Virus genome (UHGV): UHGV-0149901
DNA: 64,000 nt
Direction: 5' to 3' (one strand)
Source: a virus
How positions within the stretch are numbered: position 1 is the first letter of the stretch; every line of letters starts with the position of its first letter. The notes below the pieces were generated by a model, which saw nothing but the letters and a program-made list of their open reading frames with translations, was not told the origin of the DNA and did no database searches. This document shows positions 3,405-18,694 of the stretch, one piece after another. A program made the position numbers and the translations under genes.

Positions 3405-4723
3405 AAAAGTTGATCGCACTTAAGCATAAGCTGGACGAAATGAAAGCTATGGGAACCAATGCAAAAAAAGAGGCATTGGCCAACATGGATGACTTTGAAC
3501 AAAGCATGGTTTCATTGATGCTCAACCCTTTCATCCGTTTTGGGGTAAAGAAATACAAAGTGGCAGAGCCGCTTAGTGAGTCCGTCCCAAGTGACGAAAA
3601 AGCCATTGATGTACTGAATAAGCTGGCCTCTCGCGAGCTGACGGGGAACGCAGCAATAGCTGCTGTTGAGTCTATCGTGGCGTCAATGTGCGCCGATGGG
3701 CAGGACGTGTTCCGTCGTTTCCTCTTAAAAGACCCGAAAGCGGGTGTTGGGATTAGCCTATGCAACAAGGTTTTTGAAAATCCCATTCCGAAATTCGAGG
3801 TGCAGCTGGCGTCACCGTATAAAGAAAAAGGCGACAAATACCCCTTCAAGCCAAATCCTAAAGCAAAATGGCCGATGATTGGCAGCCTTAAGCTCGATGG
3901 TTTGCGAGTAATTTGCGAGGTTATTGTTGACGAGGAAGAGGTGAACTTCCTTTCTCGTACTGGTAATCCAATCACGTCTCTCGATCACCTAAAGCCAGCC
4001 ATGCTCGAATTAGGCAAACTTTCAGGCCACAAACACATCTTCTTCGATGGTGAAGGAACAGCCGGTTCATTTAACCAGTCCGTATCTGCATTGCGCAAAA
4101 AGAACGTGCAGGCAATTGGCGCTATTTATCATGTTTTCGACTTCTTCCTACCGGAATGGCGGGCACAGGCTAAATCCAAAGAGTATGCAAAGACAGGTAT
4201 GAAACTGAAAGAGCGCCTGGCTATGCTCGTGGCGTTGTTCAAAAACGATCGCAGTGAAGGCTACGCACAAGACATTCACCTGCATCCGTTCTACATCATC
4301 CATAGCCACGAAGACTTCATCGAACGCTTCATGAAACGCCTGGACGATAACGAAGAAGGGGAGATGGGCAAAGATCCGAACTCTGTTTACGAGTTTAAAC
4401 GTACCCGCAGCTGGTGGAAGTTAAAAGACGAAGATTCAGAAGATGGTGAAATTATCGATTTTGAGCCGGGCGACCCGGACTCTGGTTTTGCCAACACGCT
4501 TGGAAAAATTGTTATTCGTCTTGAAAACGGAGTCATCGTTCGTGCGAGCGGCATTAAGCATAAATATCTGGACGAGATCTGGAACAACAAAGAGAAGTAC
4601 CGTGGTCGTATTGTCGAGGTTCATTGTCACGAGAAAACACCTGATGGCAGCTTACGCCACCCACGACTGAAATGGCCGCGTTGCTTACGCGATACCGAAG
4701 AGCGAATCGGTGATAAAGAATGA
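3401..4723 (+). CDS. ATP-dependent DNA ligase
   Basis: Adenylation motif I KxDGxR present as KLDGLR; 440 aa; GGAGG RBS. Confidence 0.8.
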   Translation: MKKLIALKHKLDEMKAMGTNAKKEALANMDDFEQSMVSLMLNPFIRFGVKKYKVAEPLSESVPSDEKAIDVLNKLASRELTGNAAIAAVESIVASMCADGQDVFRRFLLKDPKAGVGISLCNKVFENPIPKFEVQLASPYKEKGDKYPFKPNPKAKWPMIGSLKLDGLRVICEVIVDEEEVNFLSRTGNPITSLDHLKPAMLELGKLSGHKHIFFDGEGTAGSFNQSVSALRKKNVQAIGAIYHVFDFFLPEWRAQAKSKEYAKTGMKLKERLAMLVALFKNDRSEGYAQDIHLHPFYIIHSHEDFIERFMKRLDDNEEGEMGKDPNSVYEFKRTRSWWKLKDEDSEDGEIIDFEPGDPDSGFANTLGKIVIRLENGVIVRASGIKHKYLDEIWNNKEKYRGRIVEVHCHEKTPDGSLRHPRLKWPRCLRDTEERIGDKE

Positions 4724-4935
4724 TCGTATTAAGTAAACGGGAGAAAGAAACGCTTCATGAAATAAGTAAGTGGCCGGAGTTCCCTGAGTACTGGAAGCCT
4801 AAAACGCGAGCTAAGTTAGAGCGTTTAGGGTTGGTTGCAAACGTTTCTGAAACGTGGTGCTCGGCCAACTACCAGTTAACTGATAAAGGGAAATTAATGC
4901 TACAGCAATTAGTAGAATCAGGAGCCTTTAAATGA
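4720..4935 (+). CDS. Hypothetical small protein
   Basis: 71 aa ORF, ATGA overlap with ligase stop. Confidence 0.5.
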   Translation: MIVLSKREKETLHEISKWPEFPEYWKPKTRAKLERLGLVANVSETWCSANYQLTDKGKLMLQQLVESGAFK

Positions 4936-5084
4936 TTCCATACATCTCATTGGCTTTTATGGCTGGCTTCCTTATCGGCTTCGGCATCTGTCGTGATTTG
5001 ATTAAGCAGGAACTTAAAACCAAAACACTGTGCATCGGAAAGCGTGTGTATCGGGTAGTTCATGAAACAAAGGTTAGAAAATGA
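4932..5084 (+). CDS. Small membrane protein (50 aa, not in ORF track)
   Basis: MIPYISLAFMAGFLIGFGIC...; ATGA overlaps with both neighbours; start coincides with recombinase half-site 13-mer. Confidence 0.4.
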   Translation: MIPYISLAFMAGFLIGFGICRDLIKQELKTKTLCIGKRVYRVVHETKVRK

Positions 5085-5371
5085 GCAATTTAACTTCTTT
5101 GGAATGGTGGTTGGCCACCTATTTCTTAGCGGCCGGAGTCGCATTCGCCTTTTACGTAGGTCAGTTAGTCGTAAAACTGCTGCTGATTAAATTTGCCAGT
5201 CATAAACGTATCGATGATGGTCTGTGGCGTCTTGGCGCCCTGGTGGAAACTCGCTACGGGCAACTTAAGGAGAACGAAACCATTACTATCCAAGCGAAAC
5301 GATTCACTGCCACCATCACAAGAACACCTAGTCGTAGAGTGGCCTTGATCAAAAAAGTCACAACCGAATAA
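5081..5371 (+). CDS. Small membrane protein
   Basis: 96 aa ORF with hydrophobic N-terminal helix; translational coupling. Confidence 0.5.
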   Translation: MSNLTSLEWWLATYFLAAGVAFAFYVGQLVVKLLLIKFASHKRIDDGLWRLGALVETRYGQLKENETITIQAKRFTATITRTPSRRVALIKKVTTE

Positions 5372-6147
5372 AAACACAATGATAAGTATTTACTTACTTA
5401 TCTTTTGTGTATAAGATGACTTTGTTTTCGTTGAGACGCGACTGTTTGAACTTAAATACAAGTGCAAACGAAGAAGTCTATCTGGCAGTAGCCTAATAAG
5501 CCAAACACCAGCGAGGTCAGTTTCCAGCCTCGTTACCGAAATGGGACACACTGAGCGAGTGTGATTGCAGAACGCAGGAGGGAACATTCATGTTCCCTCC
5601 GATGAAGTAACAGAATGGGCGGTTGGTATATTTTCAACTCCATATGACTCCCGGATTCTTAGCCACTGACCGCCCATCCTGTTACGTCATTTTGTTCAAT
5701 TATGTCGTTTATACTGGGTTAAAAAGCGGCGACGTAGCCCGGCTGGTATGGTTAGCCAGCACACAACGTTGAGGCCATTACATTTGTATCAATTCTAAGG
5801 TTCTATTCACAGAGATACCGGCGAGCGTTGATATGTAACATGTTGGGCAAACATTCAATCGGAGTAGTGGCCTCAACGTTGTGAAGACAGGATTGTTGTG
5901 TAGGTTTAACCACTGTTGCCATTGGTGCCTGTTTTCACAACAAATGATTCCATACATCACATTGTATAAATTAAAAAGTAGGTGCTGTCCTCAGAAACAT
6001 CATCTACTTAAAGATTTTGCCTTCTATTGAGCGAAGTCGAAAACGTCTGGCACTAACGGAAAGTGCAAGTAGCGGTGCGTTTCCTGGCAGAAACTAACAC
6101 CGCCGCGATTGGCACTGTTGAGTAATAAATACTGGCAGTGCTGAATT

Positions 6148-6222
6148 GATGGTGTAGCTCAGCGGTAGAGCAGTTGGCTGTTAACCAACTGGTCGGTGGT
6201 TCGAATCCACCCACCATCGCCA
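6148..6222 (+). tRNA. tRNA-Asn (GTT)
   Basis: Cloverleaf by hand: acceptor GATGGTG/CACCATC, anticodon loop CTGTTAA, T-loop TTCGAAT, CCA end. Confidence 0.8.
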
Positions 6223-6227
6223 ATTTA

Positions 6228-6314
6228 GGGGAGTTAGTCCGTAGGGGCAGCGGGGTAGACTGTAAATCTACTGTCATTGCGACTCGGGTGGTTCGACTCC
6301 ATCACTCCCCACCA
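6228..6314 (+). tRNA. tRNA-Tyr (GTA), long variable arm
   Basis: Acceptor GGGGAGT/ACTCCCC, anticodon loop CTGTAAA, T-loop TTCGACT, CCA end. Confidence 0.75.
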
Positions 6315-6318
6315 AATT

Positions 6319-6394
6319 GCCGGTTTAGCTCAGCTGGTAGAGCGCCTGCCTTGTAAGCAGGATGTCAGCGGTTCGAGTCCGCTAACCGGCACCA
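6319..6394 (+). tRNA. tRNA-Thr (TGT)
   Basis: Acceptor GCCGGTT/AACCGGC, anticodon loop CTTGTAA, T-loop TTCGAGT, CCA end. Confidence 0.8.
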
Positions 6395-6618
6395 ATACAA
6401 CGATAAGATCATTACGGTTAATCGTCGTTCATGTGCACAATGACTGGTCGAAAGGTAGTGATCTTACCGTTGTGGTGGATTCGCAGACTGATGCGATAGC
6501 TTTCTTGGATGTTAGGGAAATGCGGCCGCAAATCTTCCCTTTCGCGAGCGGTGATCGTCCGTAGTCCTAATTGGCTGCACCGTATGCCGGAGATTCAGTA
6601 CCGGCCACCACAACGGCC

Positions 6619-6705
6619 GGAGAGTAGGGAGCATGGTGCTCAAGCGGTCTTGAAAACCGTCCCATTGCGCAAGCGATGATGGTTCGATTCCATTACTCTC
6701 CGCCA
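6619..6705 (+). tRNA. tRNA-Ser (TGA), long variable arm
   Basis: Acceptor GGAGAGT/ACTCTCC, anticodon loop CTTGAAA, T-loop TTCGATT, CCA end. Confidence 0.7.
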
Positions 6706-6861
6706 GACACAGCGTTGAGCGGTTTGGCCTTTTAATCAACTCGATTAAGACTCCGCTAACATAAACCAGACCGCTCAACGCTGTGATAGACAATTACGGC
6801 AGACGTTCTTAACCATAGCTTGCTAACATCCTAGCAACACTTTTTTAAGCGCAAAATCCAA

Positions 6862-6882
6862 AGGGGCTTCGGCCCCTTTTTT
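6862..6882. terminator. Rho-independent terminator, possibly bidirectional
   Basis: Hairpin AGGGGC-TTCG-GCCCCT followed by T6. Confidence 0.7.
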
Positions 6883-6883
6883 G

Positions 6884-7792
6884 TTAATGATTGCCTAGAT
6901 ATGATTTTAGTTCTTCTTTAATGATTAGTGAGTATTCTAAAATATCACTTAGTAAAAATTTTGCTCTGTTAAAATACCCACCAAAAGAACCTAAAATTTC
7001 AGATGGTCTTTCTAAGAGCATCACAATATCATCTTCTTGCACTTTAGTAATGTAACTTCTAACAGCTCTTTCTCCAATAACTCTTTTCTTACCGTTTATT
7101 TCAGATTCATCTAAAACCTTATTTATAAATTTTTCTGTATCATTGAATCGTCCACTATTGTGTACTATTGTATGTCTTAGTAGTTCAATTAGCTTGATGT
7201 TAAAGCGATAGTTTTTGCCAATCTTGTTGTTTGTTTCTATCTCTTTGAAGCCAGGTATTTTATTTCTGAAAATTTTAGTTATTTTTTTCGATGGGTTACT
7301 TTTTGCTTTTAATAATCTGTAATAAACTTCCCTTTTCCCAATTTCATCATCTTCAACCTTACCAAAATCACTTGAGGACCATAAATCATTTCGAACACAT
7401 ACAGTATAGACATATATTGCCTCAATATAGTCTTCCAGTAACTCATAGGCTTCAGTAATAACCCACTGATATTGTTTATTTTTCAAAGTATTACACAATC
7501 TTATCTTTTCTTCTAAATCAATGGCGCTGTTACCTATCTCTAATGTTGAACCTGTATATGGGTTTGAACATAAATGGCGAGCTAACGTTGTGCCACACTT
7601 AATCTTAATAGTTTCATTAATATTAATAATAGTATCTGGATTCTGTGCATACTCCACTTCTTTAAGAAGACGTTTTATATTTTTCTTTGTTGTATCATTT
7701 ATCTGATTTAAATAGTCAAAAAGTAAAGATATTTCTTCTCTAAATTCGTTGTATTTATTTTCAATCAAAGAATCAGACAACTTACCAATCAT
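6884..7792 (-). CDS. Hypothetical protein, AT-rich reverse-strand gene
   Basis: 302 aa ORF, markedly AT-rich relative to flanks, opposite strand to neighbours; contains R-x4-H (RHTIVH) HEPN-like motif (weak). Confidence 0.6.
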   Translation of the reverse strand: MIGKLSDSLIENKYNEFREEISLLFDYLNQINDTTKKNIKRLLKEVEYAQNPDTIININETIKIKCGTTLARHLCSNPYTGSTLEIGNSAIDLEEKIRLCNTLKNKQYQWVITEAYELLEDYIEAIYVYTVCVRNDLWSSSDFGKVEDDEIGKREVYYRLLKAKSNPSKKITKIFRNKIPGFKEIETNNKIGKNYRFNIKLIELLRHTIVHNSGRFNDTEKFINKVLDESEINGKKRVIGERAVRSYITKVQEDDIVMLLERPSEILGSFGGYFNRAKFLLSDILEYSLIIKEELKSYLGNH

Positions 7793-7965
7793 TAAAACCT
7801 CTATAAAATGTACATTTCAAGGCAATCCTTACTGTAATCTATTGTCGTAATCACTTCAATTGTTTACTAGTTAACCAATAAGTTACTACATACTTATCAA
7901 AAAAATCTGTTTGTAGTATAGTCTGATATGTTCGAATCAATATTTATAAAGGTATTTGTTAAGTT

Positions 7966-8211
7966 ATGACGATCACTATCTACGGACGAGATAACTGCTC
8001 ATACTGCAAACGTGCGGTCGAGCTGGCGAAGCAACTAAAGGGACATGGCTACAGTGATTATGAGTACATCGACATCACCACTGCCGGTATCGACAAGGAA
8101 AAACTTAGTGAAATTGTTGGTAAACCGGTAGAGACTATCCCCCAAGTGCTGATCGATGGCCAGCCGATTGGCGGATACACAGAATTTGCTGCTTTTGCGA
8201 GCACTCTGTAA
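7966..8211 (+). CDS. Glutaredoxin (NrdC/NrdH-like)
   Basis: 81 aa; CSYC active-site motif in thioredoxin-fold context. Confidence 0.8.
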   Translation: MTITIYGRDNCSYCKRAVELAKQLKGHGYSDYEYIDITTAGIDKEKLSEIVGKPVETIPQVLIDGQPIGGYTEFAAFASTL

Positions 8212-8306
8212 TACAATACGGCTCCTTTTGGGGCCATTTATTATTTGTAGCTTTCATCAGCACAGCGTACACTTAGTTACGAGCCATTGAGTAGTTAAGA
8301 GGTTTT

Positions 8307-8915
8307 ATGCGTTTAGAAAATTGCCTAGAAGATATGAGTGTCATTAGCAATGCCCTTGCTACTGTGACCTCTAACGCTTCACGCTTTTCAAACGCAAAGC
8401 CTACAGCTAAATCTGGGCGTGATTTTATTGAACCGCGTGGATATCGACGCTTCCGTGGCACGATGAAGCCCTCTGCGAAATTCACAGGATTCAAAACACA
8501 AACCTATGTGAGCACTGCGGCTATTCCTGTTCAAGAAAACCGCGATGCGGCACAGCTGGCAAAGATTGAAAGCAAGCTCGCAGAATTGACGGCGAAACAC
8601 GTTCGCTTAGCCCATGCCATCTCTGGATGGAAAGCGGAAAAGATTCGCAGCAACTTCGGTGAAAGTCGTTACGAAGAACTGAAGAACGTTGACCTGACCA
8701 TTCGTGGTTTGGAGGGATTCGTTAACAAGTTGATTCGCGACTCTGAGCAACCTCATCCATATTTGAAACGCTTGAGCGATTCTGTAACTGAGTATCGTTT
8801 AGCTATCTCTGATCTGCTATTGATTTTAAATCAGTGTTTTAACGACGTAGACGTCATCGAATCGCAGACTGGCCTCATTGATGAGGACGTCTTCGCCAAC
8901 TTCTCATTCCATTGA
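8307..8915 (+). CDS. Hypothetical protein upstream of toxin-like gene (possible antitoxin)
   Basis: 202 aa ORF with AAGAGG RBS, 9 bp upstream of YafO-like ORF. Confidence 0.5.
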   Translation: MRLENCLEDMSVISNALATVTSNASRFSNAKPTAKSGRDFIEPRGYRRFRGTMKPSAKFTGFKTQTYVSTAAIPVQENRDAAQLAKIESKLAELTAKHVRLAHAISGWKAEKIRSNFGESRYEELKNVDLTIRGLEGFVNKLIRDSEQPHPYLKRLSDSVTEYRLAISDLLLILNQCFNDVDVIESQTGLIDEDVFANFSFH

Positions 8916-8924
8916 GGTTGAACG

Positions 8925-9335
8925 ATGAAGATCACATGGAACAGTGATAGTTACGCCCAATTTTTAAAGCCGACCTTCGATATAAAGCCTGACTTAGAGA
9001 TTACGTTACTCAACGATTTCAAGTCGTTTAAACAAGGCATGTACCCAGCCATATTCGGCAAAGATGGCCCGTATACGGCTCCTGGTGCTATCGTGTCCTC
9101 CCGCGTCTATCACGTTCATCTCTTGTTCACGAAGCAAGAACGAACCAGCAGCCGCAGCAGATTCAATTGCACAAGCGACCGTGCACTCGTTTACAGTCAA
9201 CATGCACATTTCCAAGATGTGTATAGCCTATTGGCAATCTTCCCTAACAACGCACATCAGCACGCGAAAGATCCAAAAATTATGGTCGATATCGCTACCT
9301 ACGCGGCCGCATTTCAAGCTCTCACTAACCCTTAA
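8925..9335 (+). CDS. YafO-like toxin family protein (putative)
   Basis: Conserved blocks IFGKDGPY, RVYHVHL, LVYSQHA resemble YafO-family toxins as I recall them; 136 aa. Confidence 0.5.
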   Translation: MKITWNSDSYAQFLKPTFDIKPDLEITLLNDFKSFKQGMYPAIFGKDGPYTAPGAIVSSRVYHVHLLFTKQERTSSRSRFNCTSDRALVYSQHAHFQDVYSLLAIFPNNAHQHAKDPKIMVDIATYAAAFQALTNP

Positions 9336-9377
9336 CAATCATATTAATAACGCCTCAGAATTTAAATTCCTCCCTTA

Positions 9378-9410
9378 AATGATTCCATACCTACTATGTA
9401 TGGAATCATT
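9378..9410. other. lox/dif-like recombination core site (13 bp perfect inverted repeats, 7 bp spacer)
   Basis: AATGATTCCATAC-CTACTAT-GTATGGAATCATT, 99 bp upstream of recombinase gene. Confidence 0.65.
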
Positions 9411-9508
9411 GCTGAAAATGAGTTACTTTTACTCTTGATCCTATAAGAATCTATGCCTAATATACTGTTTACTTATACAGTGCATCGGCGTAACTCGGTG
9501 ATTGTCAT

Positions 9509-10612
9509 ATGAAAAATAGCTTTGACAGAGCACGCGCTGCGGAGAACACCTCAAAAGAGGCGATAGAGTATCTCGAAAGAGCATCTCAAATGCAGGCCGT
9601 TATGATCTCCCAGGTCAGCAATGACATGAGATTCTCGGACGCATTCATGTTATTCACTCGCTTATCTCTGCTGATAACCAGACGTCGGCCAGAGATCGCT
9701 GTTCATTGTATTTTGATACATGTTTTGCCGCACATTGCCGATGTAAAAGTAAGTGACATTAATAGGTTCATGGTGAACCAACTGGTCAACCCACTAATAC
9801 TGGATGGCAAAATTGTTATGGGCCGCCGCGTTTTCTCTCTGATGAAGCAGTTCCTTAGCTGGTGCGCCTTCCAGGGGATGATAGACGTGTCACCGTTAAA
9901 CGATATGTCACTTAACAAAGTTGCCGGTGGCGCAAAGCCCACACCTCGCGAGCGGAAGCTGACCGACGCAGAGGTATGGGTGTTCTGGAATATATGGGAC
10001 TACTTCAATGTGTGTGCTGGTACAAAATGGGCGGCCAGGCTATGTCTTGTATCCGCAAGACGACCTGACGAAGTACTGCGGGCTAAAAAAAGTGAGTTCA
10101 ATCTTAAGCGTGGGGTTTGGAATCAAGGCAAGAGGAACAAATCTGCCCGTGAGCATTCTCTGCCTTTAAGCTCATTAATGCGCACTTGTATTGAAGAGTT
10201 GTTCGAATATGGTAAAGACAGCCAGTGGCTCGTGCCTTCGAATAAAAAAATCGGGAAAGACCTTCCTATGTCTAAAGTGGCAATAGCCCAGGCATTACGT
10301 CGTATTCTGGAACGACCAGAACTGATGGAGCTTGAGCCATTTACACCCCGAGATTTGCGCCGTACTGCGCGTAGTTACTTCCCAGCATTAGGCATAAGCC
10401 AGGAGGTATCACGTAAAATCATGAACCACAGTCTTGAGGGGATAGATCGGGTCTACGACCGGCACGATTATATGGACGAGATGCGAGACGCCTTAGAAAG
10501 TTTCTCGACGTACATCGCATCAATCGTAGAGCAACCGGATTTAGACGAAATTGACCACAAATTTAAGGGAGATCGTCTATCAACAGAGCTTATTCGTGTA
10601 AATTTTTCATAG
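9509..10612 (+). CDS. Tyrosine site-specific recombinase / integrase
   Basis: C-terminal catalytic region with RDLRRT box, NHS, and terminal RVYDRHDY tyrosine; 367 aa. Confidence 0.8.
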   Translation: MKNSFDRARAAENTSKEAIEYLERASQMQAVMISQVSNDMRFSDAFMLFTRLSLLITRRRPEIAVHCILIHVLPHIADVKVSDINRFMVNQLVNPLILDGKIVMGRRVFSLMKQFLSWCAFQGMIDVSPLNDMSLNKVAGGAKPTPRERKLTDAEVWVFWNIWDYFNVCAGTKWAARLCLVSARRPDEVLRAKKSEFNLKRGVWNQGKRNKSAREHSLPLSSLMRTCIEELFEYGKDSQWLVPSNKKIGKDLPMSKVAIAQALRRILERPELMELEPFTPRDLRRTARSYFPALGISQEVSRKIMNHSLEGIDRVYDRHDYMDEMRDALESFSTYIASIVEQPDLDEIDHKFKGDRLSTELIRVNFS

Positions 10613-10993
10613 AGACTTTATGGCCTCAACAACCTTTTGTGATGCGCCTTTCTCTTTACCGAATCGCTCGTTATATGCAGCAAGAACCTGTTTTTCGTCC
10701 TCGTTAAGAGGAGCAGTGCCTTCTTTGTATAAAAATGCTGCGAGTTCGGGTTGGCGTTCTTCCAGCACCATCATCATAAGACGACTTGGCTCAATGCCCA
10801 GTGCCAGCGCCAGCGGACGAACCTTATCGATAGGCAAAGGAATTTTGCCGCTTTTAATTAAAGAAAGGTTGTTGGCGTTTTTATACCCAATTGTTTTGGC
10901 TATCTGGGCCTGGCTCATAGGTGAGGATTCAATCAACCCTGCGATAAAAGCAGCGTAGCGACTTTCTATAAATTCAATCTTGTTATCAGACAT
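10607..10993 (-). CDS. HTH XRE-family transcriptional regulator (repressor-like)
   Basis: Helix-turn-helix MSQAQIAKTIGYKNANNLSLIKSG; divergent to downstream genes. Confidence 0.7.
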   Translation of the reverse strand: MSDNKIEFIESRYAAFIAGLIESSPMSQAQIAKTIGYKNANNLSLIKSGKIPLPIDKVRPLALALGIEPSRLMMMVLEERQPELAAFLYKEGTAPLNEDEKQVLAAYNERFGKEKGASQKVVEAIKSL

Positions 10994-14997: not shown

Positions 14998-15201
14998 GTG
15001 CGTAAAGGATGTTTCGGCTCTCTTATCGCTGCTTCTGAAACTGGTAAGGCTTGTCTGGTGTGTCCAGACAAGCCCGATTGTCACCAATCAGCAAAAGAAG
15101 TTGCGATTTCGATGCATGGGAAGTTCGTAGGCTTCCCCAATGACAAAATCAAAAAAACCAGAAAGGTAAAAACACATGAAGGCACTGATGGTTCGAACTG
15201 A
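14998..15201 (+). CDS. Hypothetical small Cys-containing protein
   Basis: 67 aa, GTG start, overlaps dnaE start by 26 nt. Confidence 0.3.
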   Translation: MRKGCFGSLIAASETGKACLVCPDKPDCHQSAKEVAISMHGKFVGFPNDKIKKTRKVKTHEGTDGSN

Positions 15202-18200
15202 CTTCTCACTTGGGGAGTCGGCTCTAAAAGCAGAAAACGCGGTGAAGATTGCCAGAGAAGCTGGCTACACCGCTGTAATTTCAGCAGATAGCATGAATAT
15301 TGCGAGCGTTATTCCACTACAACGTGCCGCTGGTGACGACATGGCGGTTATTTGTGGTGTGAAACTAAACATTGTTGATGATCCCACATACGAGCACCGG
15401 GCTAAACTTGCTAAAGAATCTATGAGATGTATGGAATCATTAGAGCGGGGACGTAACTACTCGTTTACCGCTCTAATTAAAAATGAGCAAGGATATCGCG
15501 ACATCTGCGAACTAATGACGGCGGCCAACACACGAGAACAGTTCTACTTTGTACCGCGTCTCTCGCTCGAACAGTTGGTTTCTACATATGCCAAAGGCAA
15601 CATCATCCTGCTTACTTCCGACATCGGTAGCGTGTTCCAACGCAACGATTTTGCAAAAATCATAAGCACACTGATTACAGCGGGTGGAAAAGACAACTTC
15701 TATAGTGTGGTTTATCCGCACCCTACCCCATTCTACGACCAGATTAACGTCCGGGCGATGAAAGTCGCCAGCGCATTGAAAATAGAGCCAGTGGCGTTCT
15801 ATCCCGCTTATTACGAATCGATCGACGATGCAGACATTAAAGACATTGCGCACATGGTTACGAACAACATCAAAATCGACCAGCCGCATCGTCTGCGTAT
15901 CCCCCACCAGCGAGATAACGCCGTCAATGGTCGCCGCCATCTCCTTGAGGCGCTTAAAGCCTTCTCCGTTCGCATGGATGTGCCGGTAACAGCTGCAATG
16001 GCCTCAACAACGCAGGATACCATTATCGATGCCTGCACATGGCGCTGGCATGAATTGCCGCCAGCACTGCCAAAGATGGCAGACGACGAGCCTGCAACGC
16101 TTATGAAACTGGCTGTTGCAGGGCTGCGTAAACGTCTTACCACAAAAGAGTTTGGCTACACACCACCTGCTTCTGAGAACAGGGTTTATGTTGAGCGGCT
16201 AAAGTACGAAATGGACACGCTGACTCGCCTGGGATTTTGTGGTTACTTCCTGATGGTACGCGATCTGATGAATCATAGTCGTGAAACTGGCATTCCCGTT
16301 GGGCCTGGTCGTGGTTCCTCTGCCGGTTCTCTGGTGGCGTGGTGCATAGGCATAACCAACGTCGACCCAATCCGTCACGGTCTTCTGTTTGAGCGTTTCA
16401 TCAACCCTGAGCGTCTCGACTTGCCGGATGCGGACTTGGACTTCAGCCAGGCACGTCGCCATGAGGTGATCGAGTATCTGAATGAACGCTACGGCGAAGA
16501 TTACGTTGCGGGTATTCCGAACTTCACCTACCTGGGCGCAGCCTCTGCACTACGTGATACCGCTCGTATTTATGGTGTGGAGTCCGCAGATATGGCGGTA
16601 TCAAAAGAACTGAAGAACGTCGAGGATGATAGCCTTCCATTGGAAGAGCTGCGCGAACAACTGGCAAGTCTCGACAAATACGCAACAAAATATCCTGATG
16701 CATTCAATGCAGCCTGCAAGTTACAAAGCCTTATGCGTGGCTTTGGTAGACATGCGGCAGGGATGATCGTAGCAGGTGTTCCTCTGACAGAACGTACACC
16801 GGTTGAGCGCCGTGGTGACGCGCGTTGTATCGCATTTGACAAGCGTTACTGCGAGGCTATGGGCCTAATTAAGCTGGACGTGCTTGGCCTGGCAACTCTC
16901 GATTTGCTCGATAGTGCAAAACGCTACATAAAAGAGAACACAGGTGAAGATATCAATCTTGATGCCATTTCTCTTGAAGATCGCAAGGTGCTGGATGGTT
17001 TTGCTGCTGGGTACACTCAAGGTGTTTTCCAGCTTGAATCAGGCCCAATGCGCAAGCTGCTTAAAGATTTAGGTGGTGGAATTGAGCCAATGAGCTTTAA
17101 AACGGTCGTCGCTACAACTGCGCTCTTCCGGCCGGGGCCAATTCAATCAGGCATGTTGGATGACTATGTTTCTGTCGCCAAAGGCTTTATGACGCCGGAA
17201 TCATTACACCCCGTTCTTGATGAACTTACCGCGGAAACAAATGGCGTGATTCTCTATCAGGAACAGACGATGAACGCGACTCGATTGCTTGCCGGCTTCA
17301 CAATGGCTGAAGCTGACGCTGTGCGTTCCGCAATCGGTAAGAAGAACATGGAAAAAATGAAGAGCATGGGCGAGAAGTTCATCGTTCAGGCTCAAGCTGG
17401 CTGGATAGACGTTGAGCTGGAAGATGGCACTACACAGCGCATTCACCGTGCGGAACATTTTAAATGCGAAGACGGAACTCTGAAAACTGTCGAAGAGGCA
17501 CTTGAGCACGGCGCAAAACTACCTATAAACGCAGTACGCGTTACAGCGTCACATCCAGGGCTATCAGAGATGAAAGCGAAGGAGATCTGGACCGCATTTG
17601 AGAAAAACGGAGCCTATCAGTTCAATAAATCACACTCCGTTGCTTATTCTTTAATCAGTTATCAATCTATGTGGTTGAAAACTCATTATCCCGCAGAGTT
17701 TTTCGCTGCTGCTCTCACTATTCTTGGCGAAGATAAACACCAAGGGCTGGTTAAAGATGCGCTGACCTATGGTATTCGCGTATTGCCACCAGACGTTAAC
17801 GTGTCATCTAACCGAATCGAGATCCGCACGCTTGAAGATGGCAGCCAGGTTCTGTATGCGCCCTTCTCTGCTGTGAAGGGGTGTTCTGAGAATGGCTGCC
17901 AAGCCATCATGAGAGCACGAGAAAAAGTTGGCGGCAAATTCGAGTCACTGGCGCAATTCGAAGAAGCTGTCGAGAAACGTGCCTGTAATAGTCGAGTGCG
18001 CGAATCACTGCAAAAAGTAGGTGCGTTTGCATCCATCGAGCCAGGTAGTCTGCCAGCAACTGATCCTGAGCGTCTCCGCGACCAGGCAGAATTGATGGGA
18101 AACCTTGTCATAGACGCAGTTAAAGCCTCACGTCCGTTTGAGATGAACCCCAAACGATCGGCTGAAATTAACGCACTCATGACACGGATGGCGGCTGAAA

Positions 18201-18694
18201 TGGGCTTAGGTGATGAACTAATCCGCCCCAGCATTGGCATTAAGCCGAAAATCATGATCATTCTGGACAATGCGAACGGCAATGATGCTCGAACCGGTTA
18301 CTTCATGGAGAACGGATACGACGATTTTAAGGCCAAGCTATTGACGGCTGGAGATTTACGCATGGGCGATCTCTATGTCACAGGCGTTTGCAAGAAGGTT
18401 AAAGACAAAGAAAAAGACTACACCAAAGACGAGATCGGCCAGTTCACCGACTTTATACGTGAAGAGATCAATCTGGTGCATCCGACCTATGTGCTGACGT
18501 GTGGCAGCCGGGCGACGTCGCTCTTCAACAACAAGAGCAAACCATCCGACCTGGTTGGACGCAAAGAGTATCTGCCGGAGCTGGATGTGACCGTTTTCTA
18601 CGGATTTAACCCGAATATTTTGTACTTTCGCCCAGAGGAAGGCGAAAAGCTGGAAGCAATTCTTGCAGAGGTAGCGGAGACTATTAGCAAATGA
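15176..18694 (+). CDS. dnaE: DNA polymerase III alpha-like replicative polymerase
   Basis: 1172 aa; N-terminal PHP domain and polymerase core blocks (GLIKLDVLGL, FNKSHS). Confidence 0.9.
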   Translation: MKALMVRTDFSLGESALKAENAVKIAREAGYTAVISADSMNIASVIPLQRAAGDDMAVICGVKLNIVDDPTYEHRAKLAKESMRCMESLERGRNYSFTALIKNEQGYRDICELMTAANTREQFYFVPRLSLEQLVSTYAKGNIILLTSDIGSVFQRNDFAKIISTLITAGGKDNFYSVVYPHPTPFYDQINVRAMKVASALKIEPVAFYPAYYESIDDADIKDIAHMVTNNIKIDQPHRLRIPHQRDNAVNGRRHLLEALKAFSVRMDVPVTAAMASTTQDTIIDACTWRWHELPPALPKMADDEPATLMKLAVAGLRKRLTTKEFGYTPPASENRVYVERLKYEMDTLTRLGFCGYFLMVRDLMNHSRETGIPVGPGRGSSAGSLVAWCIGITNVDPIRHGLLFERFINPERLDLPDADLDFSQARRHEVIEYLNERYGEDYVAGIPNFTYLGAASALRDTARIYGVESADMAVSKELKNVEDDSLPLEELREQLASLDKYATKYPDAFNAACKLQSLMRGFGRHAAGMIVAGVPLTERTPVERRGDARCIAFDKRYCEAMGLIKLDVLGLATLDLLDSAKRYIKENTGEDINLDAISLEDRKVLDGFAAGYTQGVFQLESGPMRKLLKDLGGGIEPMSFKTVVATTALFRPGPIQSGMLDDYVSVAKGFMTPESLHPVLDELTAETNGVILYQEQTMNATRLLAGFTMAEADAVRSAIGKKNMEKMKSMGEKFIVQAQAGWIDVELEDGTTQRIHRAEHFKCEDGTLKTVEEALEHGAKLPINAVRVTASHPGLSEMKAKEIWTAFEKNGAYQFNKSHSVAYSLISYQSMWLKTHYPAEFFAAALTILGEDKHQGLVKDALTYGIRVLPPDVNVSSNRIEIRTLEDGSQVLYAPFSAVKGCSENGCQAIMRAREKVGGKFESLAQFEEAVEKRACNSRVRESLQKVGAFASIEPGSLPATDPERLRDQAELMGNLVIDAVKASRPFEMNPKRSAEINALMTRMAAEMGLGDELIRPSIGIKPKIMIILDNANGNDARTGYFMENGYDDFKAKLLTAGDLRMGDLYVTGVCKKVKDKEKDYTKDEIGQFTDFIREEINLVHPTYVLTCGSRATSLFNNKSKPSDLVGRKEYLPELDVTVFYGFNPNILYFRPEEGEKLEAILAEVAETISK

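Follow-up and report, generated by a model that had tools for sequence, protein, structure and literature searches.

The system closest in layout to the element considered here is Cre/loxP of phage-plasmid P1, along with its engineered relatives Dre/rox, Vika/vox, and Panto/pox. There a recombinase gene stands beside a simple site, one in which a short, asymmetric spacer separates two arms of 12-13 bp that are perfect inverted repeats of each other. The carrier is a plasmid prophage, neither an arm-binding domain nor arm sites are evident, and the probable role is that of turning multimers into monomers. A similar description may be given of a locus in UHGV virus genome UHGV-0149901, as studied here over a stretch of 64,000 nucleotides (‘the window’, i.e., the whole of the DNA analysed), where a palindrome at 9378-9410 precedes a gene, int, for a tyrosine recombinase or ‘integrase’ (Int). 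The window is that of an E. coli phage-plasmid of the SSU5/pHCM2/pMT1 type, members of which are about 110 kb in length. Likeness to Cre/loxP is only partial, however. The loxP site has 13-bp arms and an 8-bp spacer, versus a spacer of 7 bp here; Cre displays no detectable sequence similarity to Int, and as a fold it matches Int at an E-value of only about 0.03, versus about 5e-7 for lambda Int. In addition, and also unlike Cre/loxP, int is accompanied by a LexA box as well as by dispersed, conserved single copies of the site's arm.

Integrases of the lambda and P4 types are alike in other respects, that is, in their core-binding plus catalytic fold, in their 7-bp overlap, which is typical of lambda-Int-type recombinases, and in that the nearest remote sequence relatives of Int are of the P4/CP4-57 type. 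Unlike these integrases, Int has a helical extension in place of the arm-binding domain PF13356, and its site is a perfect palindrome lacking arm-type sites and is never found integrated. The Rci/sfx shufflon of IncI plasmids in turn has the same 12-7-12 geometry. In sfx it is one 12-bp arm plus the spacer that is conserved (PMC11852207), a one-armed layout which resembles that of the single copies seen here. Unlike with Rci/sfx, a full symmetric site is present here as well, the single copies do not have a common spacer, those copies lie kilobases apart in unrelated genes, and no inversions are seen.

For the single copies a further comparison is available. XerD of Bacillus subtilis is described, in a report citing Karaboja et al. 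2021, as acting at dispersed single-monomer sites (XDS) around dif, there unloading SMC, a role other than recombination (PMC11894783). One full site along with dispersed single sites is what would be shared with the present locus, where the resemblance is one of sequence, i.e., conserved, oriented single arm copies around the full site; the XerD/XDS system, unlike that of Int, is chromosomal, extends over hundreds of kilobases, and involves two different recombinases at dif. To our knowledge it is the sole precedent for such dispersed single sites.

Neither of the arm sequences to be described was found in a recombinase context in open-access papers and preprints, and in the phage-plasmid literature searched the tyrosine recombinase is mentioned merely as a persistent gene. 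The recombinase/site pair is apparently undescribed, and its phage-plasmid variant, having both an SOS box and conserved, oriented single-arm copies, is unusual. Phage-plasmids have been described as typically without integrases (PMC12977533).

A palindrome that co-varies with its recombinase gene

Identity in the region around the palindrome is 99.9% to Escherichia coli plasmids (pRM9975-1, for example) and 98% to Escherichia phage Cyrano, the complete genome of which is 108,379 bp. The features with which the argument begins are as follows:

9378-9410, no strand assigned: predicted core recombination site (comparative evidence)
9379-9390: left arm, ATGATTCCATAC
9391-9397: spacer, CTACTAT, 7 bp
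9398-9409: right arm, GTATGGAATCAT
9509-10612, plus strand: tyrosine recombinase (‘integrase’, int), 367 residues; Pfam PF00589, weak PF22022

A perfect inverted repeat, AATGATTCCATAC-CTACTAT-GTATGGAATCATT, is found in the window just as the original prediction had it, and its end indeed lies 99 bp before the ATG of the recombinase gene (open reading frame, or ORF, starting at 9509). It is the A/T pair at 9378/9410 that lengthens the repeat to 13 bp in the window's lineage. A search for repeats around the site returned none besides the palindrome. In Cyrano the upstream gene is on the opposite strand, and the site nonetheless is identical.

Comparison among lineages is what ties the palindrome to Int. 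Close lineages, i.e., those in which Int is 82-86% identical, are represented by Klebsiella pJN2-26, Yersinia pestis pMT, Salmonella Typhi pHCM2, and Enterobacter, plus a second E. coli type, Kluyvera, and Buttiauxella. Across these the arms are invariant and the 7-bp spacer is variable, reading CTACTAT, TTGGTAG, CTATTAA, TTGTAAG, or TTAATAG among the SSU5-like lineages. The DNA from the site to the int ATG is moderately conserved, and the left flanks are unrelated.

A more distant test is provided by Int homologues of 45-59% identity, which are found on unrelated replicons of about ten genera. These replicons include a 29-kb Photorhabdus plasmid (pPAU1) and megaplasmids of 250-560 kb in Pantoea, Rahnella, Erwinia, and Chimaeribacter, as well as contigs of Xenorhabdus, Ewingella, Hafnia, Morganella, and Biostraticola. 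In 55 of 63 genome loci the gene is preceded, at a distance of 60-290 bp, by a perfect inverted repeat whose spacer is 7 bp. With up to two mismatches allowed, a 12-7-12 inverted repeat precedes int in 73 of 74 loci (the one without it is a gene fragment), and near none of the 74 genes is there an alternative candidate site. The spacer is 7 bp in length in all 73 sites, with arms consisting of 11 invariantly paired positions plus a variable 12th/13th. Two classes of arm are found: TGATTCCATAC, as seen with the phage-plasmids plus one Chimaeribacter clade, and TGACTCCAGAC, as seen at all other loci. These classes differ at two positions, each of which is altered in concert in both arms, i.e., T:A in 14 loci versus G:C in 55 for the first such pair and T:A in 14 loci versus C:G in 59 for the second, with a few loci carrying intermediate, imperfect sites. 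The int gene and the site are, moreover, the sole features that these plasmids have in common, as neighbouring genes differ. Since gene and site thus travel and co-evolve as a pair, the palindrome appears to be the cognate core site of Int. That the palindrome would be the core site of the adjacent recombinase had been proposed from the window's letters, and the compensatory arm changes, in conjunction with the 73 of 74 loci, strongly support this proposal. Nor is the arm a generic promoter element of unrelated genomes, the outcome that was to have counted against the proposal.

Int itself matches the catalytic domain of phage integrases (PF00589) with an E-value of 2.9e-10, and has a weak match to PF22022, an integrase central, core-binding domain. 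Residues Arg185, Lys211, Arg284, His307, and Tyr316 are invariant, or nearly so, among 47 homologues, with about 50 residues following the catalytic Tyr. An AlphaFold model (pLDDT 86.8) presents a helical N-terminal extension (residues 1-57 predicted helical), then a core-binding domain, then the catalytic domain. The best fold match to this model is lambda Int 75-356 as bound to COC' (TM 0.72 on target), with Xer, Tn1549 Int, and IntI coming next. Chains of Cre rank 37th and lower, at E-values of 0.03-0.1, and the Int sequence has no match in the PDB at E<=1, Cre included. Its remote relatives in sequence, i.e., the P4/CP4-57-type integrases, carry the arm-binding domain PF13356, and neither this nor any other arm-binding domain was found in the Int family by Pfam scan or homologue comparison. 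The missing domain fits with a simple site that lacks arm sites. Int, going by its sequence and modelled fold, would work in a Cre/loxP-like manner, that is, as one enzyme on one simple symmetric site, yet descends from the lambda/P4 side of the superfamily, whose typical 7-bp overlap it keeps. The description ‘lox-like’ in the original prediction consequently is apt as an analogy of layout and of probable role. As a statement of family membership it fails, given a 7-bp rather than 8-bp spacer, the lack of a sequence match to Cre, and a fold that is closest to that of lambda Int.

Between site and gene are the following:

9435-9440 and 9458-9463, plus strand: putative int promoter, -35 TTGATC and -10 TAATAT with a 17-bp gap, as read from the sequence
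9463-9482: LexA box TACTGTTTACTTATACAGTG, overlapping the -10 of the putative int promoter

This LexA box has 16 of 20 matches to the consensus, with its CTGT-N8-ACAG perfect. As the box is strong and overlaps the promoter of int, int expression is predicted to be SOS-inducible, and the level of Int should rise upon SOS induction. The putative promoter itself scores 8 of 12, which is under the threshold of the promoter scan. All of the phage-plasmid lineages have a CTGT-N8-ACAG between site and int; it is missing from every one of the roughly 60 non-phage plasmids with that recombinase. The box, that is, is confined to those lineages which also carry single arm copies.

Single arm copies in the phage-plasmids

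Elsewhere in the window the arm recurs as single copies, which are listed here with names reflecting their position to the left or right of the full site:

4932-4946, plus strand: L1, ATGATTCCATACATC, being the start codon and first five codons (MIPYI) of a 50-residue ORF at 4932-5084
5944-5958, plus strand: L2, ATGATTCCATACATC, intergenic, part of a conserved non-coding block, with tRNA-Asn following after about 190 bp
10114-10125, minus strand: R0, a degenerate copy inside int, TGATTCCAAACC in the window, across codons Val-Trp-Asn-Gln
15426-15440, minus strand: R1, ATGATTCCATACATC, in a dnaE-like ORF (15176-18694), about 84 codons in

The 12-mer ATGATTCCATAC, along with the 13-mer of the original prediction, has exact copies at 4932(+), 5944(+), 9379(+), 9398(-), and 15429(-), two of these five being the arms of the palindrome and three being single copies. 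Such recurrence had been held to exceed chance, and five matches versus a mean of 0.00 in 100 dinucleotide-preserving shuffles bear that out. In the complete genome of Cyrano the motif is found at these five places alone, all of them within about 10.5 kb. Also as predicted, a 20-mer, AATGATTCCATACATCTCAT, is identical between 4931-4950 and the reverse strand of 15422-15441; this identity belongs to the E. coli lineage alone rather than being conserved.

The single copies are real, non-random, and conserved, with orthologous copies found across lineages. In every phage-plasmid lineage they are kept at orthologous positions while their flanks diverge, in three or four fixed places that lie within about 6 kb to either side of the full site. 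L1 is invariant in 5 lineages, with flanks that vary; L2 is invariant in 6, with flanks that align poorly; and R1 is conserved in 7 as a 14-nt invariant run. In frame, R1 encodes Cys-Met-Glu-Ser-Leu of DnaE, with no synonymous change in the seven lineages. R0 reads TTGATTCCATACAT in the Klebsiella, Yersinia, Salmonella, and Enterobacter lineages. Left-hand copies are all on the plus strand and right-hand copies all on the minus strand, that is, each points toward the full site.

No second arm, even a degenerate one, is present beside the single copies. The 7 nt which follow them differ from the core spacer and, outside of the E. coli lineage, from each other; within the E. coli lineage L1 and R1 share, in inverted orientation, both the arm and an identical 7-nt spacer. 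What is conserved instead is a block of 15 bp, i.e., the 12-bp arm plus three spacer-side bases. Since this block equals the footprint of one monomer, the binding of a single Int monomer is the simplest reading. Taken as crossover points, the single copies do poorly, owing to the missing second arm and to spacers that in most lineages are unlike that of the core and unlike one another. Nor were they seen to act as breakpoints of rearrangement, as had been implied: of 243 E. coli plasmids, 242 have an unbroken R1 junction and the remaining one is merely split there by its record origin, with no inversions at R1 in any of the 243.

Extra arm copies were absent from 948 kb of flanks on the non-phage plasmids that bear the module. 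The distant Klebsiella phage-plasmid pKSB1_7G.2, by comparison, with an Int that is 58% identical and arms reading GTGATTCCATAC, has an L2-type copy plus R0, and its L2-type copy starts with GTG, matching that plasmid's own arms. In SSU5, which is int-less, L2 is changed to ATGATTCCGTAC, the sole substitution seen in any L2; as a single case this is suggestive. From these comparisons we conclude that the single copies probably are functional, that they go with the module in its phage-plasmid form, and that they do not serve as crossover sites.

Several other ideas concerning these copies were set aside. A paralogue of the Int DNA-binding domain might have been what binds them, and a phmmer search with Int against all Cyrano ORFs of at least 40 residues found Int alone. 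A reading of the copies as promoters was rejected, with no sigma-70-like sites seen in 4600-6800. Megablast alignments to other genera begin or end exactly at L1 and L2, so that both might be viewed as mosaic boundaries. These ends appear to be artefacts, however, because a perfect 15-mer serves to anchor alignments in diverged DNA, and for L2 the more sensitive blastn homology crosses to tRNA-Asn at 6223. R0 as an independent site is left uncertain, as it overlaps the invariant Trp-Asn-Gln codons of Int, and hence is subject to coding constraint, and also is degenerate in the window. A scan of IMG/VR for the 15-mer yielded mostly chance single matches, plus the L1/L2 pairs of SSU5-like elements.

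Three elements stand out in the conserved non-coding block that surrounds L2 (5840-6148). One long hairpin, GTTGTGAA...TTCACAAC, shows a compensatory change in Klebsiella; another, which co-varies, follows L2 closely; and the sequence CGTCTGGCACTAACG-AAAGTGCAAGT has hardly changed even in the phage-plasmid with an Int of 58% identity. A non-coding RNA is one possible reading of the block, and a signal for processing of the tRNA operon another. Also upstream of the tRNA cluster, at 5445-5547, is a weak match to a tRNA-like or tmRNA-3'-like Rfam model (beta_tmRNA, 17 bits, E 0.05), which is far under the gathering score.

Plasmid-only distribution, likely role, and competing explanations

Among 5,426 complete E. 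coli genomes the int region is present in 219 (about 4%), at 220 places, with a median of one place per genome. None of these 220 places is chromosomal, all being on plasmids, and a survey using the dnaE segment repeats this plasmid-only picture. Chromosomal integration thus does not seem to be the role of Int. Homologues of Int otherwise sit on ordinary, non-phage plasmids, ranging from small plasmids to megaplasmids. Gene plus site, that is, constitute a compact, two-part module which lives only on plasmids of Enterobacterales, e.g., Y. pestis pMT1 and S. Typhi pHCM2. As no other site-specific recombinase is annotated in the 108-kb Cyrano, a plasmid-only spread in combination with Int as sole such enzyme makes multimer resolution the most economical role. 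By analogy this is also the most likely one, and in general terms it has been suggested for the recombinases of phage-plasmids (PMC7969092).

Mechanistically, each of the inverted 12-bp arms would bind one recombinase monomer, with strand exchange occurring in the 7-bp overlap between the arms. Int would then recombine two sites on a plasmid multimer or replication concatemer, restoring phage-plasmid monomers. The single copies (ATGATTCCATACATC), each with a full monomer footprint, would be extra binding sites for single Int monomers rather than points of crossover. Considered jointly, i.e., as a cognate core site, multimer resolution, and additional monomer-binding copies in the phage-plasmids, this explanation we regard as probable, if with a real chance of being mistaken in some part.

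A number of points weigh against this joint explanation. Control of int by SOS is not to be expected of a housekeeping resolution system. The spacer, furthermore, reads TTAATAG or CTATTAA (the reverse complement) in 46 of the 73 loci, in both arm classes and in many genera, and in both orientations relative to int (30 versus 16). Simple Cre-like systems do not require conservation of the spacer across genera. Such conservation does not fit with a plain housekeeping resolution system and is unexpected for a simple recombinase. The case for pairing Int with the site is entirely comparative, and the ligand of the single copies is a predicted one. Coding for the invariant W204/Q206 explains 8 of the 14 nt of R0, and dnaE has other invariant runs that equal R1 in length. 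Indeed, with nine invariant runs of at least 14 nt in the 8-kb alignment, it is not the conservation of R1 as such that is special but instead its identity to the arm.

Salmonella phage SSU5 (JQ965645), the type phage, also has to be considered in this light, since it grows without int and without the site. A single deletion (located at 8978-9141 of that record), extending from just past tRNA-Asn to the cobT-like gene, has taken out the cargo region, core site, int, repressor gene, and a small ORF as one block. The module, given this absence, is dispensable for lytic growth and would be part of the plasmid or lysogeny side of the phage's biology; the deletion would account for a non-lysogenic phenotype.

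The most serious of the competing explanations operates at the level of RNA, with a small RNA that contains L2 pairing with the int and dnaE mRNAs and thereby regulating both genes, and with the palindrome as a hairpin holding both partners. Because all of the genes concerned are on the plus strand, pointing ‘toward the palindrome’ amounts to sense on the left and antisense on the right, so that L1 and L2 are in the sense of transcription and R0 and R1 place the complement into the int and dnaE mRNAs. L2 furthermore lies in a tRNA-operon spacer, within a conserved non-coding block by the tRNA genes, with compensatory hairpins directly up- and downstream, and part of that block is kept in the phage-plasmid whose Int is only 58% identical. 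The motif is, however, identical to arms that co-vary with the recombinase on plasmids which do not have these RNAs, the edges of the conserved block are sharp at the arm plus 3 nt, with no drift of the G:U type, and there is neither consistent extension of L2-R1 complementarity nor a match to an Rfam family. The palindrome also is upstream of the int promoter, and such a scheme gives no evident task to L1, which sits at a start codon; we consequently view the scheme as improbable. Slightly less probable yet is that the palindrome is a mere transcriptional operator, whether for the helix-turn-helix (HTH) repressor or for Int autoregulation, and not a recombination site. It does lie just 25 bp upstream of the int -35, and the gene for an HTH regulator is adjacent in the phage-plasmids. 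That gene is absent, though, from most plasmids having int plus site, which excludes its product as the ligand; even on such plasmids the site is retained and changes in step with int. The layout, with 12-bp arms centred about 19 bp from one another, suits a tyrosine recombinase dimer rather than one of the XRE type. Full conservation of the catalytic residues implies selection on Int as a recombinase, one that needs a site, and the vicinity of the 74 genes offers no other candidate. An autoregulatory effect of the palindrome in addition to its role as a site is possible.

With a shufflon- or integron-like system the one-armed copies would themselves be crossover sites for inversion or excision, e.g., L1 x R1 inverting 10.5 kb and thereby turning off dnaE, or L2 x core excising the cargo region. 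Geometry as in sfx, i.e., 12-7-12 with one conserved arm (PMC11852207), speaks for this, as do the shared arm and identical 7-nt spacer of inverted L1 and R1 in the E. coli lineage, the roughly 50 residues of Int beyond its catalytic Tyr, and a cargo hotspot that abuts the full site. We nevertheless consider it very unlikely: L1 x R1 inversion would destroy dnaE, spacers of single copies differ from that of the core and from each other in most lineages, the R1 junction stays intact in the E. coli plasmids, L2 is not a mosaic boundary, and cargo is not arranged as site-flanked cassettes. Cointegrates, too, are joined by other means, as in two module-bearing plasmids of about 215 kb that are linked to other replicons via insertion sequences (IS) or transposons (Tn) and not at the site; Int-mediated cointegration was rejected on these grounds. 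Use of the site as attP, for chromosomal integration of the phage-plasmid, is what the integrase annotation, the P4/CP4-57-type relatives, and the lambda-Int-like fold would lead one to expect. Set against the lack of any chromosomal place in the E. coli survey, an Int with no arm-binding domain, a site with no flanking arm-type repeats and a perfect symmetry that is atypical of attP, and homologues on non-phage plasmids, such use is highly improbable. That the palindrome is only a chance hairpin, or else an intrinsic terminator of the upstream operon, is next to negligible in likelihood. While a stem of 13 bp could indeed fold there, following the yafO-like gene, that stem is AT-rich, has no T-run, and was not flagged in a terminator scan, the same site is present in Cyrano with the upstream gene on the other strand, the chance expectation is 0, and the comparisons among lineages already contradict such a reading.

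Beyond the joint explanation, a second and non-recombination role for Int may be imagined, one that we think doubtful though less so than any of the above competitors. In phage-plasmids of the SSU5 type, upon LexA cleavage, SOS-made Int monomers might load on the oriented one-arm sites (ligase operon, tRNA region, int, and dnaE), serving there as polar roadblocks or regulators of early replication genes, or instead effecting strand-specific nicking to give ends with which T4-like recombination-dependent lytic replication could begin on a circular plasmid. The element carries genes of such T4-like replication, i.e., UvsX/RecA, UvsY, UvsW, and a gp32-like SSB.

The cargo border, neighbouring genes, and significance

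The site also marks an edge. Homology to the window starts at 9376-9378 in 200 of 219 E. coli plasmids, a mosaic boundary, and all cross-lineage blastn comparisons resume at 9376-9379. The outer edge of the left arm, that is, is the fixed right-hand border of a cargo hotspot (6224-9377 in the window). Immediately left of the site are found:

Window: YafO toxin module
Cyrano: highly expressed moron CYRAN_43
Y. pestis pMT1: caf1 F1-capsule operon
Enterobacter: type I restriction-modification system
Citrobacter: Tn3-family transposon with aph genes

CYRAN_43 is expressed 723-fold over background (PMC9928086). Cargo varies by whole blocks and by transposon insertion. Nothing indicates that cargo is inserted by Int itself, with no flanking hybrid sites seen at the hotspot and with cointegrates joined by IS or Tn elements. 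The cargo region contains neither arm copies nor repeated sites, i.e., it is not a cassette array of the integron attC type. The sharp left edge is best read as resulting from a functional site of 31-33 bp, under purifying selection, which lies beside a permissive region.

Read from the left, the genes begin with DNA ligase and three small ORFs, after which come tRNAs in a cluster (Asn, Tyr, Thr, Ser) and the variable cargo. To the right of the cargo are the palindrome, int, the HTH repressor-like gene that converges on int, a cobT-like gene, a gene for an AAA ATPase, and then dnaE. Cargo in the window consists of grxA, one ORF that is unknown, and a YafO-family toxin. The toxin gene is at 8925-9335 and upstream of it is an ORF of 202 residues (8307-8915) without a family match, which is long for a YafN-type antitoxin and may be a non-canonical partner of the toxin. 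On the other side of int is one further feature:

10607-10993, minus strand: HTH (XRE-type) repressor-like gene, a putative repressor in the Cyrano annotation

In every SSU5-like lineage this gene converges on int with a 6-bp overlap (10607-10612). It neighbours the int module in phage-plasmids only, not being beside int in the Pantoea and Rahnella plasmids. Transcription of int, if driven by SOS, would carry on into the repressor gene in the antisense direction, possibly as a component of the induction switch.

What these comparisons provide is, for the persistent ‘integrase’ of a very common phage-plasmid group, one that includes Y. pestis pMT1/pFra and S. Typhi pHCM2, both a site and a testable role. 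That same site fixes the border of a hotspot which in Y. pestis holds the F1 capsule operon and in other hosts holds toxin-antitoxin, restriction-modification, and resistance-transposon cargo. With at least two natural specificity classes of a compact, 7-bp-spacer pair, these recombinases possibly could supply orthogonal tools for use beside Cre, Dre, and Vika. For the phage-plasmids themselves, the single-arm copies together with the SOS box suggest a recombinase that has been drawn into the lysis-lysogeny programme.

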